Source: Minisyncoccia bacterium (GTDB taxonomy: Bacteria; Patescibacteriota; Minisyncoccia; UBA6257; 2-01-FULL-56-20). From it: a stretch of DNA of 64,000 nt. The translations under genes were made by a program, and so were the position numbers. The notes beneath the pieces were generated by a model, which saw nothing but the letters and a program-made list of their open reading frames with translations, had not been told where the DNA came from and searched no databases. Shown in pieces: positions 878 to 7,593 of the stretch; position 1 is the first letter of the stretch; every line of letters begins with the position of its first letter. The stretch lies in the NCBI GenBank assembly GCA_050015515.1, contig JBEKBG010000001.1, positions 86,814 to 150,813 on the forward strand, given 5' to 3'.

Positions 878-2167
878 CTACAGCGTCACGAACATCGCCA
901 CGGCCGCGGCGGCCATCAAGATAAACGTCGCCCAGACGAAAACTTTTGAGAGCCATCCACTCTTATACTCGCCCATGATCTTTTTGCTCGCCGCCATGCG
1001 CGCGATGATAAAGATAAGAGGCACCGCCGCCACGCCGTTGAGGACGGCGGTAAAGACAAGCGCCTTTATCGGGTTGATGCCGATGAAGTTGATCATCAGG
1101 CCGACGAGCGTGGCGATGGTGATAACACCATAGAATCCGTGCGCGTGCTTTAATTTAAGATTCAGCCCCTCCTTCCAGTTGAACGTTTCGGAAAGTGCGT
1201 ACGATGCGGAGGCGGAGAGCACCGGCACGGCAAGCAGGCCGAGCCCGATGACGCCGATGGCGAATAACACTTTTGCGATATAGCCTGCGTTGGGAAATGT
1301 GTGCACGAGCGGCTCGAGCGCTTTCGCCGCGTCCGCCGTGGTGGCGATGTTCGTAAGTCCGTGCGCGTTCAGCACCGTCGCCGCCACAATGATGATGCAC
1401 CATGTCGCCACTTCGGATGAGAGCATGCCAAGAAAGTTATCCCACCGCAGACGGCTCATGAACGATTTCGTCGGCTTTGTTGCGCCGCTCTTTATCAAAT
1501 GATGCTCCTCTTCTTCCTCCACTTCTTCCGACGCTTCCCAGAAGAACATATACGGCGAAATGGTGGTGCCGAGCACGCCGGTGATAATAAACAAGAACGC
1601 AAAGCTGAATTGCACGTGCGGCAGGAACGTTGCGCGCAGGATCGTACCCCACGGCTCATGGACGAGGAACACGGTGAGCGGATAGGAAATGAGCACGAGA
1701 GCCAGCCACTTTAAAATCTTTGCGTAATTTTTATACGAAACAAAAATTTCAAGCAGCAAAATGAGTGCGGTGAAGAAGAGCGTGAGCACGGTAAAGTTCA
1801 CCGGGATGATGAGCGCCGCGGCCGCGCCCATCGCGCCAAGGTCGGCGCCGATGTTGATCGTGTTTGCGATGAGGATGAGCGCCAACAGACCGTACAGAAT
1901 TTTGCGGTTGTAATTTTCTTTGACGACCGCCGCGATGCCTTTGCCCGTCACCGCGCCAATGCGTGCGCACGCCTCCTGGATCGCCACCATGAAGGGGAGC
2001 AAGAAGAGCGCGGTCCACAACTGTCCGTAACCGAACTGCGCGCCGGTCTGGGTGTAGGTGGCGATGCCCGACGGATCATCATCCGCCGCGCCAGTGATCA
2101 AACCCGGGCCAACGATCTTGAGGAGATTCTTTGTCTTCTTGCCGAACTTTGCCATAGATAAGAGCAT
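878..2167 (-). CDS. mntH: Nramp family divalent metal cation (Mn2+/Fe2+) transporter
   Basis: Polytopic membrane protein with Nramp consensus stretches (GPGLITGAADDDPSGIATYTQTGAQFGY, MVAIQEACARIG); start placed at MLLSMAKF inside the longer ORF. Confidence 0.85.
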   Translation of the reverse strand: MLLSMAKFGKKTKNLLKIVGPGLITGAADDDPSGIATYTQTGAQFGYGQLWTALFLLPFMVAIQEACARIGAVTGKGIAAVVKENYNRKILYGLLALILIANTINIGADLGAMGAAAALIIPVNFTVLTLFFTALILLLEIFVSYKNYAKILKWLALVLISYPLTVFLVHEPWGTILRATFLPHVQFSFAFLFIITGVLGTTISPYMFFWEASEEVEEEEEHHLIKSGATKPTKSFMSRLRWDNFLGMLSSEVATWCIIIVAATVLNAHGLTNIATTADAAKALEPLVHTFPNAGYIAKVLFAIGVIGLGLLAVPVLSASASYALSETFNWKEGLNLKLKHAHGFYGVITIATLVGLMINFIGINPIKALVFTAVLNGVAAVPLIFIIARMAASKKIMGEYKSGWLSKVFVWATFILMAAAAVAMFVTL

Positions 2168-2378: not shown

Positions 2379-3011
2379 ATGAGCACCAGCGTCATTAGTG
2401 TGGAACAGCGCTTCGCTCTGCTCGCCGCCATGGGAGCCAACATTGACTGGGATTCGCTCACGATTGAGCAGATCCAGGCCGGTATCAAGAATCCTCAACT
2501 GACCGGAAAGCAGGCAACCCTGTTCATCCGGTCCGGCTATTCTGTGCAGATCGGCGAGCATTTCCGCGAGACCGGCGACGTGAGCATTCAACTCCCGGCA
2601 CTCAAGCGGCCGACGCTCAAGGAACTCCAGGCGAGCAACGACTGGATCAAGTCCATCGAGCGGGACACATCCACCGAGGAAGCGGTAACGCTCACATTCG
2701 CAACAGTGCTCGTGCCCGATGACGGCAGTTCCATCGACGGCAAGGAATATGAGAAGCGGATTGCGCTCAAACACGATTCTCTTCTCGGCTTCCAGCACCG
2801 CCAGTGGCTTCTCGAACACCAAGCAGAGTTCCCGGAGTTCATGGCGCTTCTCGGAAAGTGCTACGTCGACTTCCCGGGAATCGTCGTGGTCAGCCGCGGC
2901 GGCGATCGCCGCATCCCGTACTGCCTTCGGGACGGCTCACGCTGGGGCGACAGCTGGAACTGGCTCAGCGGCGGCTTCGATGTGGACGGACGCATCGCTG
3001 TCGGCAAGTAG
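2379..3011 (+). CDS. DGR target protein 1 (variable protein with C-terminal VR)
   Basis: C-terminal 150 aa paralogous to the ORF at 4897..5559; last 40 codons coincide with VR1; RBS AAGGAGAAACACC precedes ATG at 2379. Confidence 0.8.
   Translation: MSTSVISVEQRFALLAAMGANIDWDSLTIEQIQAGIKNPQLTGKQATLFIRSGYSVQIGEHFRETGDVSIQLPALKRPTLKELQASNDWIKSIERDTSTEEAVTLTFATVLVPDDGSSIDGKEYEKRIALKHDSLLGFQHRQWLLEHQAEFPEFMALLGKCYVDFPGIVVVSRGGDRRIPYCLRDGSRWGDSWNWLSGGFDVDGRIAVGK
2884..3004 (+). repeat. DGR variable repeat VR1 (121 bp)
   Basis: Aligns gap-free with TR 3329..3449; 16 mismatches, every one at a TR adenine (A->G, A->C, A->T); identical 21-bp GC-rich 3' end GGACGGACGCATCGCTGTCGG. Confidence 0.85.
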
Positions 3012-3076
3012 CAATCACTTGGGTCCTCGTGCGCTTGGTCTTTTGACCTTGAGCACTTGGGCCCTTTTCTTTTCTT
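3012..3076 (+). repeat. Conserved post-VR element, copy 1 (direct repeats CACTTGGG, short GGTC-TTTT-GACC hairpin, GGGCCC followed by T-rich run)
   Basis: About 85 percent identical to 5560..5631, which follows VR2. Confidence 0.4.
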
Positions 3077-3328
3077 AAAATACTCGTATGCTGATGGTGG
3101 ATAGTAGATCGTTGCGCATGGCTACGGCTCTGCGCGGTCGAACTCTGCGATAGCATCTGCCGGAGCGGGAGCGGATACGTCTTTTCCCGGCGTGCGATGT
3201 TTATCTGCTTACTTATTATTGCTACTTGGTGCGGAGAATTAGGGAATTATTTATAGATAGAGATTCCGAATACGATTCAATCCCAAGAATGATCGAGGGA
3301 TGGTGGCGCAGGTGATTCCCCGCACATT

Positions 3329-3449
3329 TCGTGGTCAACCGCGACGGCGATCGCAACATCCCGTACTGCAATCAGAACGGCTCACGCTGGGACGACAACT
3401 GGAACTGGCTCAGCAACGACTTCAATGTGAACGGACGCATCGCTGTCGG
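3329..3449 (+). repeat. DGR template repeat (TR), 121 bp, rich in AAC codons
   Basis: Near-identical to VR1 and VR2 except at adenines; lies between target 1 and the RT; not part of a complete gene (the local ORF 3300..3620 is spurious). Confidence 0.85.
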
Positions 3450-3470
3450 AAACTGGCAATAATGGTTTTA

Positions 3471-3842
3471 TCATTGGCGATGCCCGGCGGGTTCGCTGCG
3501 GCTCATGGTTTGCCGCAGCCACCCGCCGAGCATTTTGCCGACCTCTTCCAGCGGTTCGGAAAGTGTGATGAATTTTCCGTTATCGATAGCTTTGATCTCC
3601 CAGGAAATCTGGATGAATAATTTTAGGAGATCTAATTTTGCGGAAGCCTTTTGTAAATAGGGGACTTTCTGTTCTTTCGTGAGGTGGCTTGCAAGGAATA
3701 TCAGTTCGGTTGTTTCAATAAAGAGATCATCAATCTTCTGGCCGAGCGTAAAGCGCGAAGTTTTTGCCATGTTCGGCATGAATTCATGCCAAACCTTATA
3801 AACTTCGATAAGACGGACAACAACAGGAACGTTAGTTTTCAT
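3471..3842 (-). CDS. avd: Avd-like accessory variability determinant (four-helix-bundle / 23S rRNA IVS protein family)
   Basis: About 123 aa; C-terminal EPLEEVGKMLGGWLRQ and overall helix pattern typical of TIGR02436-like four-helix-bundle proteins; encoded antisense to the RT with start codons overlapping (CAT 3840..3842 versus ATG 3841..3843). Confidence 0.55.
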   Translation of the reverse strand: MKTNVPVVVRLIEVYKVWHEFMPNMAKTSRFTLGQKIDDLFIETTELIFLASHLTKEQKVPYLQKASAKLDLLKLFIQISWEIKAIDNGKFITLSEPLEEVGKMLGGWLRQTMSRSEPAGHRQ

Positions 3843-4857
3843 GAAGCATAGGTTAACTAAAAAACGTGGCGATATTGCTTCTCTCGAAAACCTGCTTTTG
3901 GCGTGGGAGGAATTTTTAGCGGGCAAAAAATCAAAGCCGGACGTTCAGGATTTCAAAATGCGTCTCATGGAAGAAATAATATCACTCAAAAATGATATTG
4001 TCAATGGCGCGTACCGGCATGGAGGGTACGAAGCGTTCAATGTATCGGATCCCAAGCCGCGGAACATCCATAAAGCGATTGTGCGCGACCGCCTGTTGCA
4101 TCATGCGATCTATCGCGTCCTCTGTCCGTTCTTTGATAAAACCTTCATCACCGATTCGTACTCGTGTCGCATCGGGAAGGGTACTCACAAAGCCCTCGAG
4201 CGGTTCGATGTTTTTTGCCATAAGGTCGGGCGCAACAATACCCGCACCGTCTGGGTGCTAAAATGCGACCTTCGGAAATTTTTTGCCAGCATTGATCACG
4301 CGATTTTACTTGAGACACTCTCGAAATACATTGTTGACCCGGAGATAATGGATCTTCTGCGGGAGATTATCGAAAGTTTTTCTTCGACGCGCGATGGTGT
4401 TGGTTTGCCGCTTGGCAATCTTACCTCGCAGCTCTTCGTGAATATTTATATGAACGAATTCGATCAATTCGTAAAACATGTGCTTAAAGAAAAATATTAT
4501 ATTCGCTATGCGGATGATTTTGTGATTCTTTCGGAATCAAAAATTTGGCTAGAGCATCTGCTTCCCAAAATTCGAACATTTCTTGGCGAGCGACTGAAGC
4601 TCGATCTTCATCCAAAGAAAGTATCCATAGAAACGTTGGCGTCCGGCATTGATTTTTTGGGCTGGGTCATATTCCCGGACCATAAAGTGCTTCGCACCGC
4701 AACGAAGCGGCGAATGGTCAAAAGATTAGAAAATATTGTTTCGTCGGGAACGGTCAGCTCTTATAGGGGGCTTTTAAAACATGGAAACGCGCACCAACTT
4801 GCGGAGCGGTTTCTCCCTGCCGGCGGTGAGTTGACGGATTGGCTAGATATATGGTAA
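3841..4857 (+). CDS. Diversity-generating retroelement reverse transcriptase
   Basis: 338 aa RT with no maturase or endonuclease domains; motif 4 reads LGNLTSQ (DGR-specific SQ instead of SP); YADD catalytic motif; N-terminus aligns with the Bordetella phage bRT pattern. Confidence 0.9.
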   Translation: MKHRLTKKRGDIASLENLLLAWEEFLAGKKSKPDVQDFKMRLMEEIISLKNDIVNGAYRHGGYEAFNVSDPKPRNIHKAIVRDRLLHHAIYRVLCPFFDKTFITDSYSCRIGKGTHKALERFDVFCHKVGRNNTRTVWVLKCDLRKFFASIDHAILLETLSKYIVDPEIMDLLREIIESFSSTRDGVGLPLGNLTSQLFVNIYMNEFDQFVKHVLKEKYYIRYADDFVILSESKIWLEHLLPKIRTFLGERLKLDLHPKKVSIETLASGIDFLGWVIFPDHKVLRTATKRRMVKRLENIVSSGTVSSYRGLLKHGNAHQLAERFLPAGGELTDWLDIW

Positions 4858-4896
4858 TATATGTCCAGGTGTTAAATTGAAAAAGGAGAAACCGCC

Positions 4897-5559
4897 ATGC
4901 CAAAACATGGAACCATCTCAACCAAATTCCCTGGCTGGTACATTCAGCTCCAGACCGATGTTCTGCTTCAGCTGCCACGCCCCGATGAGCTTTCGGAGCG
5001 CGTGGCCGACAGATTGCATAACAACCGCGGCTTGATGAAGAAAGCCTTGCGAGCCGCCCTATGTCCGCCCGTAACAAAACCCGCCGTCGAAACGATCTTC
5101 ACGGAGCTTTTCCGCGAGACCGGCGAACTGAGCATTCAGCTTCCGGCGCTTAAGCGTCCCACGCTTGGCGAGACCCAGTCCAAGTACGATTGGATTAAGT
5201 CCATCGAGCGGGATACGTCGACCGAGGAGTCAGTGACACTCTCGCTGGTGACGGTGCTTGCCGCTGGAAGCACTGCTTCTATCGGCGGCAGGGAATACGA
5301 GTTGAGGATCGCTGAACATCTCGACTCTCTTCTCGGTTTCCAGCACCGCGAGTGGCTGCTTGAGCACCAGGCCGAATTTCCGGAGTTCATGGCTCTTCTC
5401 GGAAAGTGCTATATTGACTTTCCCGGAATCGTCGTGGTCAACCGCGTCGGCGATCGCCTCATCCCGTACTGCAATCCGAACGGCTCACGCTGGGACGACT
5501 TCTGGCACTGGCTCCGCGACGGCTTCAATGTGGACGGACGCATCGCTGTCGGCAAGTAG
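4897..5559 (+). CDS. DGR target protein 2 (paralog of target 1, C-terminal VR)
   Basis: Shares FRETG..SIQLPALKRPTL...GRIAVGK with 2379..3011; nearly identical RBS context AAGGAGAAACCGCC-ATG. Confidence 0.8.
   Translation: MPKHGTISTKFPGWYIQLQTDVLLQLPRPDELSERVADRLHNNRGLMKKALRAALCPPVTKPAVETIFTELFRETGELSIQLPALKRPTLGETQSKYDWIKSIERDTSTEESVTLSLVTVLAAGSTASIGGREYELRIAEHLDSLLGFQHREWLLEHQAEFPEFMALLGKCYIDFPGIVVVNRVGDRLIPYCNPNGSRWDDFWHWLRDGFNVDGRIAVGK
5432..5552 (+). repeat. DGR variable repeat VR2 (121 bp)
   Basis: 11 mismatches to the TR, all at TR adenines; no non-adenine differences. Confidence 0.85.
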
Positions 5560-5631
5560 CAATTAACTTGGGCTCTTGTGCGCTTGGTCTTCTTTCGACC
5601 TTGAGCACTTGGGCCCTTTTTCTTTTCTTCT
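5560..5631 (+). repeat. Conserved post-VR element, copy 2
   Basis: Paralogous to 3012..3076. Confidence 0.4.
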
Positions 5632-5683
5632 TATCCGCCGCGAGAGCGGCGAGACCCCAAGCTATTGAGCCATTACGGGGGGG

Positions 5684-5712
5684 TTGACAAATCCTAGCGA
5701 GTGGAGTACTAT
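5684..5712 (+). promoter_or_regulatory. Sigma70-like promoter for the cold-shock gene (TTGACA-N17-TACTAT)
   Basis: Canonical -35 element with 17-nt spacer and a -10-like hexamer about 70 nt upstream of the csp ATG; long 5'UTR is typical of csp genes. Confidence 0.45.
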
Positions 5713-5780
5713 TATTAGGCAAACAAAGAAACGTCGTCGAACTTCTAGAAAAGCAACAATACTAATTTAGCACTGCAATC

Positions 5781-5978
5781 ATGCAAGGAACTATCAAAAC
5801 CCTTACGGATCGTGGATTTGGTTTCATCGCGCGCGATGGCGAAGCGAAAGACCTTTTTTTCCACTCCAAGGAGTTGAATGGTGTCGCATTTGATGATCTC
5901 AAGGTTGGCGATGTCGTCACTTTCGAGGTCACCGAAGGCGAGAAAGGCCCGGCCGCGACGAACGTCAGCCGAGCATAA
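5781..5978 (+). CDS. Cold-shock protein (CspA family, single CSD)
   Basis: 65 aa; RGFGFI and FFH RNP motifs. Confidence 0.9.
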   Translation: MQGTIKTLTDRGFGFIARDGEAKDLFFHSKELNGVAFDDLKVGDVVTFEVTEGEKGPAATNVSRA

Positions 5979-5980
5979 CG

Positions 5981-6065
5981 CCAAAACAAAAACCTCCCCT
6001 CTTTTTTGACGGAAATGCCACGTAGGAACGTGACCGTCAAAAAAGAGGGGAGGTTTTTGTTTTGG
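5981..6065. terminator. Very long perfect palindrome (32-bp stem, 21-nt loop) downstream of csp; likely bidirectional terminator
   Basis: Left arm 5981..6012 is the exact reverse complement of 6034..6065; T/A runs on both sides. Confidence 0.55.
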
Positions 6066-6144
6066 CTCGATGATGAAGAGGAGGAGAAGAAAGAAGACTT
6101 GCGTTTTGATATCGTCAGTAATATTCTCCTCTTAGGAGGTAGTG

Positions 6145-6480
6145 ATGGGTAAAATCAAAAAACGGCCGACCAATATAAGAACGGTCGGCAACGAGGTAAA
6201 TGGGAAACACTCTGTGAGCGATGAATGGCCGCCAGTGTCCTACTCAGGGAAGTATTCCCTGAAATCGCGCGTTGTAACGCGCGTCGTTGAGGGGGAGGTG
6301 TACATGGAGAAGTATGCGCCCGGGCGACCGCCAACGACTACCGTCCATCGCGCGGGCAATGCATTCGTGCAGGATCCAGATATTTACGCCGTCGGGTCTG
6401 TGTACGGCGCGAAGACCGTTTCCTTTTCCAAGAGACCCATCGATCCGACATTTATCCCACAGCTGGATGAAGACATATAG
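6145..6480 (+). CDS. hypothetical protein
   Basis: ORF with AGGAGG RBS 5 nt upstream of ATG; no recognisable domain. Confidence 0.4.
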   Translation: MGKIKKRPTNIRTVGNEVNGKHSVSDEWPPVSYSGKYSLKSRVVTRVVEGEVYMEKYAPGRPPTTTVHRAGNAFVQDPDIYAVGSVYGAKTVSFSKRPIDPTFIPQLDEDI

Positions 6481-6579
6481 CGGCATCGTTCTTTTTAACC
6501 GCCGCATCCCCGCGCTCCCGATGTTCGGAAGCGCGGTTTTTATTTTTTTGTACTGTATAGAGAATGATATAATAGAGGG

Positions 6580-7593
6580 ATGGCTTCCTCTCGTTCTGAA
6601 TCGTATTTTTCCATCGGCATCCTGCTCGCGGCGGCGGTGCTTGTGGTACTGGTATTCCTTCCGGAGCTGGATGCTATCGTGCTGGGGATAAGCGTGGCCG
6701 TGCTCTTCCAGCCGTGGTACGCCGCACTCAAAAAAGCGTTGCATGACCGGAGCGGTGCGGCGGCGGCGATCATCGTTATCCTCGCGGTCGTGATCATCCT
6801 TATCCCGCTGGTATTTATTGGATTGCAGATGTTTGCCGAGGCGCAAGGATTGTATGGCCAGATCGCCTCTGGCGGTGCGGCAGCGGTGCCGGGCGTAGTT
6901 TGGTTCCGTGCGGCGATCCAGCAATGGCTGCCGTCGCTCAATATCGATCTCACTCCGTATATCCAGCAAGTGCTCGGCTTTTTGATCGGCGACATCGGTC
7001 CGATATTTTCCGGCGTACTCGTCGCAGTCGGGACGCTCTTCCTTTCGTTCTTCGCTCTCTATTATTTTTTGAAGGATGGTTCCAAATTGCGCACGGCGAT
7101 CGTCACGCATGGGCCGTTGCCGGCGGCGCATGCGGAAGAGATCCTCTCGCGGTTGTACGCGCGCGCGGGTTCCGTCATTCGCGGGTCGCTCCTGGTAGCG
7201 GCGTTGTACGGCGTGCTCACCGGCATCGGATTTTTCATCTTTGGATTGCCGAGCGCGATCCTGTGGGGCACGGTCACTGCGGTCGCGTCGTTCATCCCGG
7301 GGATCGGTGTCTTGCTCATCGTCGTGCCGGGGATCATCTCACTCTATCTTGGCGGGAACATCGTCGGCGCGGTCGGCCTTTTGGCGTGGCTGTTCGTCAT
7401 GTCAATGACGATCGAGGCGTATCTCCGCCCGCGGCTGTTGGGTGGCAAGGAAAAGATCCATCCGATGTTGATGCTTTTCGCCGTACTTGGCGGCCTCTCG
7501 TTCTTTGGCCCGATCGGATTGCTGCTCGGCCCGCTCGCACTCTGTCTTTTATTGACCCTCCTTGAAAGCTACCCGAAGCTATCATTTTCCTGA
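6580..7593 (+). CDS. AI-2E family transporter (PerM/TqsA-like permease)
   Basis: 8-TM protein with the typical C-terminal LRPRLLG....P....F region. Confidence 0.75.
   Translation: MASSRSESYFSIGILLAAAVLVVLVFLPELDAIVLGISVAVLFQPWYAALKKALHDRSGAAAAIIVILAVVIILIPLVFIGLQMFAEAQGLYGQIASGGAAAVPGVVWFRAAIQQWLPSLNIDLTPYIQQVLGFLIGDIGPIFSGVLVAVGTLFLSFFALYYFLKDGSKLRTAIVTHGPLPAAHAEEILSRLYARAGSVIRGSLLVAALYGVLTGIGFFIFGLPSAILWGTVTAVASFIPGIGVLLIVVPGIISLYLGGNIVGAVGLLAWLFVMSMTIEAYLRPRLLGGKEKIHPMLMLFAVLGGLSFFGPIGLLLGPLALCLLLTLLESYPKLSFS

Follow-up and report, generated by a model that had tools for sequence, protein, structure and literature searches.

The question raised by this locus is whether a diversity-generating retroelement (DGR), in which the avd gene is encoded antisense to the template repeat (TR) and to the reverse transcriptase (RT) gene, is an anomaly, and how the template of such an element is transcribed. 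The locus is located in a stretch of 64,000 nucleotides (nt) of DNA from a Minisyncoccia bacterium (contig JBEKBG010000001.1, 86,814 to 150,813), which is referred to as the window; all coordinates are positions in this window. The window contains a complete DGR with the order target gene 1 with variable repeat 1 (VR1), TR, avd on the reverse strand, RT, and target gene 2 with VR2. Our analysis shows that the antisense position of avd is already known and that it is the published norm in the candidate phyla radiation (CPR). It also shows that a conserved structured non-coding RNA from the plus strand has the TR as its 3' part; a 234-nt domain of this RNA ends at the TR. This 5' RNA domain, together with a permuted pairing scheme that is presented below, is the sole potentially new result.

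An antisense avd gene is the norm among related elements

The cassette is composed of the following parts.

2379..3011, plus strand: target gene 1, with a C-terminal end that is formed by VR1
3012-3470: non-coding stretch with the TR, between target 1 and avd
3329..3452, plus strand: TR, to the left of avd, defined by repeat comparison with VR1 and VR2
3471..3842, minus strand: avd, 123 amino acids (aa), pI 9.2, antisense to TR and RT
3841..4857, plus strand: DGR RT, 338 aa, with the motifs LGNLTSQ and YADD
4897..5559, plus strand: target gene 2, paralogous to target 1; its VR2 is 5432-5555

The open reading frame (ORF) of target 1 is open from 2319; its likely start is the ATG at 2379, which has an AAGGAGA upstream. 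The target genes have no Pfam match, and no second copy of avd, RT or TR was found in the 64 kb.

An arrangement of this kind has been described by Wu et al. 2018 (Nucleic Acids Res 46:11, PMC5758913) as architecture B3, which they write as TR-(avd)-RT with parentheses for the reverse strand. B3 makes up 90% of that study's CPR set, and the authors point out that components on different strands imply at least two transcription units. The window agrees with B3 in how TR, avd and RT are ordered and oriented, and it shares with it the CPR host, a basic avd product and targets without Pfam domains. The differences from B3 are not essential: the window has two target genes, which flank the cassette, and a 2-nt overlap of the avd and RT start codons, the latter not being general there.

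The layout was further compared among relatives. More than 8000 relatives of the RT are found at E<1e-20; those with a name belong to Paceibacterota, Giovannonibacteria, Azambacteria and other Patescibacteria. Eighty loci from different species (labeled with L numbers) were retrieved by their RT and annotated with the use of profile searches and a TR/VR detector; the TR of the window itself was missed by this automated detector and was entered by hand. Eight of the 80 loci have no upstream sequence. In 71 of the 72 loci with enough upstream DNA, a minus-strand avd is located directly upstream of the RT; the remaining one (L056) has a target-TR-avd module that is inverted relative to the RT. 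A TR and a VR on the plus strand were detected upstream of avd in about 50 of the 71 loci with a minus-strand avd. The layout also recurs where this element was assembled independently (L001-L003, L084 and L086).

These data bear on the possibility that the layout is a local rearrangement or an assembly artefact, for example an inverted avd. The only point that speaks for such an origin is that the layout contrasts with the Bordetella phage prototype. It is contradicted by the 71 like loci, which come from different species and studies, by the agreement between the independent assemblies and by the publication of the same arrangement as B3. The comparative data refute a rearrangement or artefact, and the chance that one is involved is negligible.

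The best explanation of the locus as a whole is that it represents an ordinary DGR of the CPR/Patescibacteria with architecture B3; this is probably correct. The original prediction had placed the TR beyond avd, and avd antisense to the TR, the RT and both targets, and all of these elements lie where it had put them. It had also called the layout non-canonical. The term is appropriate in comparison with the Bordetella phage prototype, but it does not hold for DGRs of the CPR (B3 of Wu et al.; 71 of 72 relatives); the comparison with related genomes, which had been suggested as a check, shows that the layout is not unusual.

Some loci of the set exhibit other combinations of the same parts. In L022, two tandem modules of RNA, TR and reverse-strand avd (2606-3311 and 4296-4944), with two minus-strand avd genes and one RT, are found within 11 kb. 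The module of L056, which comprises target, 5' RNA, TR and avd (3131-4240), is on the strand opposite to the sole RT (5001-5972). The CPR contig of L011 carries at 5009-7061 a second cassette, which is co-directional in the order VR-avd-TR-RT and has a more distant Avd and RT.

The minus-strand gene is avd and the cassette is a DGR

The minus-strand ORF encodes Avd. Its 123-aa product reaches 48.8 bits with the Pfam family bAvd (PF22296), for which the gathering cut-off is 40. A phmmer search of the PDB sequences with this protein found nothing, and a comparison of folds was needed. The AlphaFold2 model, which was built with 33 homologues (pLDDT 91.4), has helices at residues 6-24, 27-51, 56-82 and 88-114, and its closest fold in the PDB is the Avd of the Bordetella phage (4dwl_C; TM 0.82/0.91, root mean square deviation 1.5 A). 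The protein is basic (pI 9.2; the mean of the family is 9.56) and fits an Avd of about 110-130 aa with four helices. In a Minisyncoccia metagenome-assembled genome, an identical Avd carries the annotation 'four helix bundle protein [Minisyncoccia bacterium]'. A codon alignment of 71 avd genes shows free synonymous sites and conserved amino acids, as is the case for a coding gene.

Could the ORF still be something other than a functional Avd, either a chance ORF or a four-helix bundle of the 23S rRNA intervening sequence (IVS) family? The match to the NCBIfam model DivGenRetAVD (NF033474; E=4e-18) reaches 65.5 bits and remains under the model cut-off of 80, which places the ORF outside this stricter, BPP-1-like equivalog definition of Avd. 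Furthermore, phmmer yields no solved Avd, and the four-helix bundles 2gsc and 2rld, which are not from DGRs, are nearly as good in fold. On the other hand, the product is above the Pfam cut-off, has the phage Avd as its best fold match and is basic; the synonymous sites are free while the amino acids are conserved; and in the relatives the gene is always located beside a DGR RT and a TR. A protein other than Avd is therefore very unlikely. The four-helix-bundle Avd that had been proposed for the minus strand is thus confirmed, including by the profile search that had been recommended for it. The proposal depended on two points, namely that the ORF resembles Avd and that no plus-strand avd occurs nearby, and both were found to be so.

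The RT is of the DGR type and not a member of the retron clade. It matches the Pfam family RVT_1, and its best solved relative is the DGR RT of the Bordetella phage (8ub7_A, E=2.3e-47, residues 11-318). The best solved RT from outside the DGRs is the retron-type 5hhl_A with 5e-21; group II intron RTs have values of 1e-20 or weaker. The SQ motif, with which LGNLTSQ ends, marks DGR RTs.

The repeats have the adenine-specific signature. VR1 (2884-3007) differs from the TR at 15 positions and VR2 (5432-5555) at 11, and all 26 differences (within 3329-3452) are at adenines of the TR; the adenine-specific span is 3338-3450. Differences at other bases begin at 3453, where the end of the TR (GGAAACTGGCAAT) deviates from that of the VRs (GGCAAGTAGCAAT) in the manner of a non-identical IMH* (IMH, initiation of mutagenic homing). 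Both VRs end at the stop codon of their target ORF. The hairpins downstream of them, with -27 kcal/mol and z about -6, occupy the site of the DGR inverted repeat downstream of the IMH.

3021-3064, followed by a T-rich run at 3065-3076, plus strand: imperfect long hairpin, terminator-like, directly 3' of VR1 and the stop codon (3021..3076: -27.2 kcal/mol, z = -6.3); a near-identical element is located after VR2
5570..5630, plus strand: hairpin and T-run after VR2, of the same design as after VR1 (-26.7 kcal/mol, z = -6.1)

The locus therefore has an RT of the DGR clade, an adenine-specific TR/VR pair and VRs at the 3' end of the targets with IMH and inverted repeat. VR1 and VR2 have each diverged from the TR at adenines. 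A point against the reading, as far as current activity is concerned, is that VR2 is base-for-base identical in L001, L002 and L003, which are three other metagenome assemblies with an identical RT. Between these samples and the window, no sign of current diversification is seen at VR2. Pentamers of the CTTGG, CTTTG and CTTAG type are repeated 3' of the VRs (3018-3064 and 5567-5616 in the window, and also in L004-L083).

Compared with the DGR of the Bordetella phage BPP-1 (mtd-avd-TR-brt), the window has a similar RT, the same Avd fold, adenine-specific changes and a VR with inverted repeat at the 3' end of the target. The two differ in the position of avd, which in the window is between TR and RT on the opposite strand, and in the large conserved RNA structure, which is 5' of the TR and not in a spacer between TR and RT.

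A conserved structured RNA domain abuts the template repeat

3094..3327, plus strand: structured RNA domain immediately 5' of the TR, as matched by a covariance model

In the window ~320 nt separate the stop codon of target 1 from the TR; across 49 loci the distance from the VR end to the TR start is 235-600 nt. The segment of ~230 nt before the TR is more conserved than the flanking genes. It includes two hairpins with UACG/UAAG loops at 3114-3135 and 3166-3189, which have 8-9 bp and a conserved internal mismatch, and an invariant ACTTGGT motif at 3224-3230. A 12-bp helix, 3229-3240 with 3314-3325, encloses two further hairpins and closes just before the TR. The pentamers downstream of the VRs share CTTGG-type letters with the invariant motif of this RNA.

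The structure is evident from the comparison of sequences. Among the 46 pairs that RNAalifold predicts, 42 show double changes that compensate each other. In a cleaner alignment of 32 sequences, 94% of the cells are paired versus 38-49% with slid partners, 46 of the 53 pairs are changed on both sides, and the score for covariation reaches 0.80 versus 0.14-0.20 in controls; none of 500 shuffles attained these values. Folding of the single sequence is uninformative: the minimum free energy structure of the whole 437-nt RNA has a z of only -1.9 and does not recover the X:X' pairing that is considered below. It is therefore the comparative evidence that carries the argument for the structure.

A covariance model of the domain has a single match in the window, 3094-3327, with 163.9 bits (E=9e-36). 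In 84 sources there are 72 matches, one per cassette, and each of them abuts the TR and is on the strand of the TR. The model also matches loci outside its training set, such as L019 with 225 bits. L056 is matched on the minus strand and L022 is matched twice; the second, co-directional avd-TR cassette of L011 has no match. The domain was found at every retrieved RT locus with enough upstream DNA.

The RNA has no counterpart in Rfam 15, including RT-1 to RT-19 (Weinberg et al. 2017): a search of 3000-3900 at E<=5 gave only chance matches to miRNAs and snoRNAs, and the whole window at gathering threshold gave only a tRNA. No description of the 5' RNA domain was found in the searchable literature, to which the primary publication about DGRs of the CPR, Paul et al. 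2017 (Nat Microbiol 2:17045), did not belong.

Transcription of the template repeat, avd and RT

Three features in the vicinity of the TR and of avd are relevant for transcription.

3084..3092, plus strand: -10-like box TCGTATGCT, in the slot of the extended -10 of the relatives
3476..3539, core 3484-3527, forms on both strands: strong hairpin within the avd coding sequence, at its 3' end
3976..4004, minus strand: promoter-like site towards avd, within RT codons 46-55

The original prediction had offered two options for an RNA with the TR, either a separate transcript or one that runs antisense through avd. The comparison of the loci favours the former, with the TR in a separate structured RNA that would have its own promoter; antisense read-through is less favoured, although it may occur at this locus. 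An extended -10 (TGnTAnnnT) is present at a fixed position before the RNA in 45 of 64 relatives, while the background is 3.5% per 38-nt window. Behind the TR, nearly all loci have a stem-loop, typically CTCCC...GGGAG followed by TTTTGTTTT. It straddles the stop codon of avd, and the sequences of its stem vary widely. In 42 of 70 loci a T-run (>=6 T in the next 9 nt) is located behind this stem-loop, which renders it terminator-like. In L056 the TR RNA cannot be co-transcribed with the RT, given that the two are on opposite strands. The TR RNA would be a transcription unit of its own, which starts near 3098 downstream of the terminator-like hairpin of target 1, and it need not be made together with the RT.

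In an alternative scenario, one long plus-strand transcript extends from target 1, or from a promoter at ~3090, through the TR and the antisense avd into the RT; it would serve as template and as RT mRNA, and avd would be expressed from the opposite strand. Several observations are in line with this and weigh against a separate RNA. The hairpin at 3476-3539 is strong on both strands (-45.6 kcal/mol, z = -6.7 on the plus strand; -49 kcal/mol on the minus strand), but in the window and its subgroup it has no T-run and lacks the appearance of a terminator; no terminator-like site was found on the plus strand in 3450-3840. With the T-run absent, read-through into the antisense avd is quite possible in the window. 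The core of the hairpin overlaps coding sequence, and its outer stem is not retained in L084. The -10 box of the window, TCGTATGCT, is without the TG. A search for a plus-strand sigma-70 or extended -10 promoter for the RT inside avd revealed no clear mode among the relatives, and no conserved promoter of this kind was found there. Finally, the promoter, the RNA ends and the priming site are all predictions from sequence. The long transcript is in turn difficult to reconcile with the strong hairpin and T-run in which target 1 ends, with the position-conserved extended -10 after target 1 in the 45 relatives, with the terminator-like stem-loop and T-run after the TR in 42 of 70 relatives, and with the opposite strands of TR module and RT in L056. 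We consider one long transcript as possible but rather doubtful.

On the minus strand, the site from 4004 to 3976 consists of TTGACA, 17 nt and TATTAT with a TG before the latter (TG-n-TATTAT). This promoter-like site is near-perfect and is kept in L084, L086 and L088; about 30 of 71 loci have a match at exactly its position. CTA, a rare Leu codon that generates a TAGAAT box on the minus strand, is used there in 11 of ~32 cases versus 7% overall. In another 34 of the 71 loci a minus-strand extended -10 is located at +15 to +29 of the RT. These data suggest that the avd promoter is probably embedded in the 5' coding region of the RT. The avd gene would then be transcribed convergently to the TR RNA, from a promoter within the initial 30-165 nt of RT coding sequence (3976-4004 in the window), and its leader would be antisense to the translation start of the RT. 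Expression of the RT may occur by read-through of the TR RNA through the antisense avd or from an unrecognised promoter.

A scan of the synonymous sites in the codon alignment of the 71 avd genes detected essentially no constraint except in the last K-Q-N codons, and this is due to the plus-strand stem-loop and T-run at this site. A conserved antisense RNA scaffold inside avd was considered and rejected, since the third positions are otherwise essentially unconstrained along the gene.

A possible permuted scaffold for priming of the reverse transcription

Two short segments on both sides of the TR are predicted to pair with each other.

3213..3224, plus strand: segment X, TTATTATTGCTA, in the 5' RNA domain, the predicted partner of X'
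3454..3465, plus strand: segment X', TGGCAATAATGG, at the IMH*-like 3' end of the TR

The duplex of X and X' has 12 bp including 3 G-U pairs, and X ends at the nearly invariant A3224. In the relatives, X immediately precedes ACTTGGT, and X' coincides with the 3' end of the TR or directly follows it. The duplex score is 7.24 for the partners from the same locus versus 5.93 +/- 0.15 for swapped partners, and none of 300 permutations was as high. X and X' covary by lineage: examples of the pairs are AAATGAAGA/TCTTCATTT, CATACGA/TCGTATG and AAATACA/TGTATTT in relatives and TTATTATTGCTA/TGGCAATAATGG in the window. The first TR/VR mismatch at a base other than adenine, 3453, adjoins X', which is as expected if the synthesis of cDNA starts there.

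The RNA of phage BPP-1 provides a basis for comparison (Handa et al., preprint 10.1101/2023.10.23.563531). In this RNA a spacer (Sp) 3' of the TR forms a template:primer duplex, Sp47-56 with TR117-129. Two nucleotides on it forms the Stop duplex of cis-primed reverse transcription (cPRT), Sp59-70 with avd369-379. Stem-loops with tetraloop caps grip Avd and RT. The RNA of the window is similar in that a single strand would pair with the 3' end of the TR and, some nucleotides later, with the segment directly upstream of the TR, so that the TR is looped out; it also has hairpins of ~8-9 bp that contain internal mismatches and are capped by UNCG-type tetraloops. The difference is in the connectivity, which as judged from the sequence is permuted: the bridging strand and the hairpins are 5' of the TR in the window. 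Among the Rfam families that the window RNA does not match is also RT-10, the motif of the phage spacer.

A comparison with the retron non-coding RNA (msr-msd) is also instructive. Both have a structured RNA before the template and a long-range duplex that joins the 5' and 3' flanks of the template. The window differs from retrons in that its RT belongs to the DGR clade, that nothing points to a branched guanosine and that the product is presumed to home into the VRs.

From these similarities we propose, tentatively, that the scaffold for cis-primed reverse transcription in B3 elements may be circularly permuted relative to that of the Bordetella phage; we see this as a serious possibility and rate it at somewhat below even chances. 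The 5' domain would comprise protein-binding hairpins, the X strand with A3224 as a candidate priming nucleotide, and a stop helix. X:X' would act like the template:primer duplex of the phage, and the 12-bp helix 3229-3240/3314-3325 like its cPRT Stop duplex. The elements that the phage has in the Sp region 3' of the TR would sit 5' of the TR here, and this placement would leave the interval between TR and RT free for the antisense avd. Such a mimicry of the phage RNA by X:X' and helix may be undescribed.

There are also arguments against a permuted scaffold. X is rich in A and in several loci can pair alternatively with the T-run behind the hairpin, so that the register is not unique. Handa et al. 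(10.1101/2023.10.23.563531), whose search took in just 40 nt before and 100 nt after the TR, report putative Avd-binding stem-loops 3' of the TR also in the CPR. The 5' domain may then be an addition to a 3' scaffold and not its replacement.

The latter findings lead to another explanation, in which the 5' region is an ordinary leader or a regulatory or stabilising RNA, and the scaffold is 3' of the TR as in the phage, formed by the hairpin and the RNA antisense to avd. It is compatible with the putative Avd-binding stem-loops that Handa et al. describe directly downstream of the TR in most Avd-containing DGRs, CPR included, and with the stem-loop after the TR in nearly all loci of our set. 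However, avd is without constraint on synonymous sites beyond the stem-loop and T-run. In addition, the conservation of the 5' domain far exceeds that of the neighbouring genes, and the domain always abuts the TR; it holds hairpins of 8-9 bp with internal mismatches and UNCG-type loops, a strand complementary to the 3' end of the TR and, adjacent to it, the helix that closes at the 5' side of the TR. An ordinary leader with a 3' scaffold is, in our view, unlikely.

Start codons and genomic surroundings

The original prediction had noted that the start codons of avd and RT overlap by 2 nt, and such an overlap is present in the CATG at 3840-3843. In the ORF of the RT no start codon is found between the in-frame upstream stop at 3799-3801 and 3841; the start at 3841 is therefore forced. 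For avd there are two options, the ATG at 3842 (complement of 3840-3842) and an internal ATG at 3779, which is chosen by some gene callers. Homology and the position of helix 1, which starts at residue 6, favour 3842 over 3779, and the annotations of NCBI and JGI give the same 123 aa. With the one start forced and the other favoured, the overlap can be taken as real. Two close relatives, L084 and L086, have exactly the same 2-nt overlap. The spacing between avd and RT in the family as a whole ranges from about -24 to +56 nt, values that are approximate because the automated choice of start codons in the relatives is noisy. L088, a relative with 80% identity, has an ATA at the position of the RT ATG and a 26-nt insertion at the 5' end of avd; the gene caller places the start of its RT 39 codons downstream. 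Because the spacing varies in the family and L088 has an ATA, the overlap is a detail of the lineage and not a feature of the family.

The neighbours of the DGR are a gene for an Nramp-family transporter (878-2160, minus strand), a cold-shock protein (5781-5978, plus strand) and an AI-2E-family transporter (6580-7593, plus strand). Their order is the same in L084 and L086; the context is chromosomal, with no phage genes. After the cold-shock-domain gene at 5781-5978, a perfect inverted repeat of 32 nt, CCAAAACAAAAACCTCCCCTCTTTTTTGACGG ... CCGTCAAAAAAGAGGGGAGGTTTTTGTTTTGG, is located at 5983-6066 in the window. It is probably a bidirectional terminator.

Implications

An antisense avd is the documented default in the CPR; in scans of Patescibacteria genomes this layout should hence not be flagged as an anomaly. 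The comparison of the loci further indicates that the TR in this large class of elements belongs to a discrete and strongly covarying non-coding RNA, apparently with a promoter of its own. The coordinates given here for the elements of this RNA, which may position the template for priming, can be tested.

If the permuted scaffold is correct, published searches confined to 40 nt before and 100 nt after the TR would not have detected this class's main scaffold. A permuted scaffold would also explain why an antisense avd can be located between TR and RT, and the domain would represent a new RNA family in a clade with more than 8000 RT relatives. This knowledge would help in reconstituting or engineering these small DGRs.

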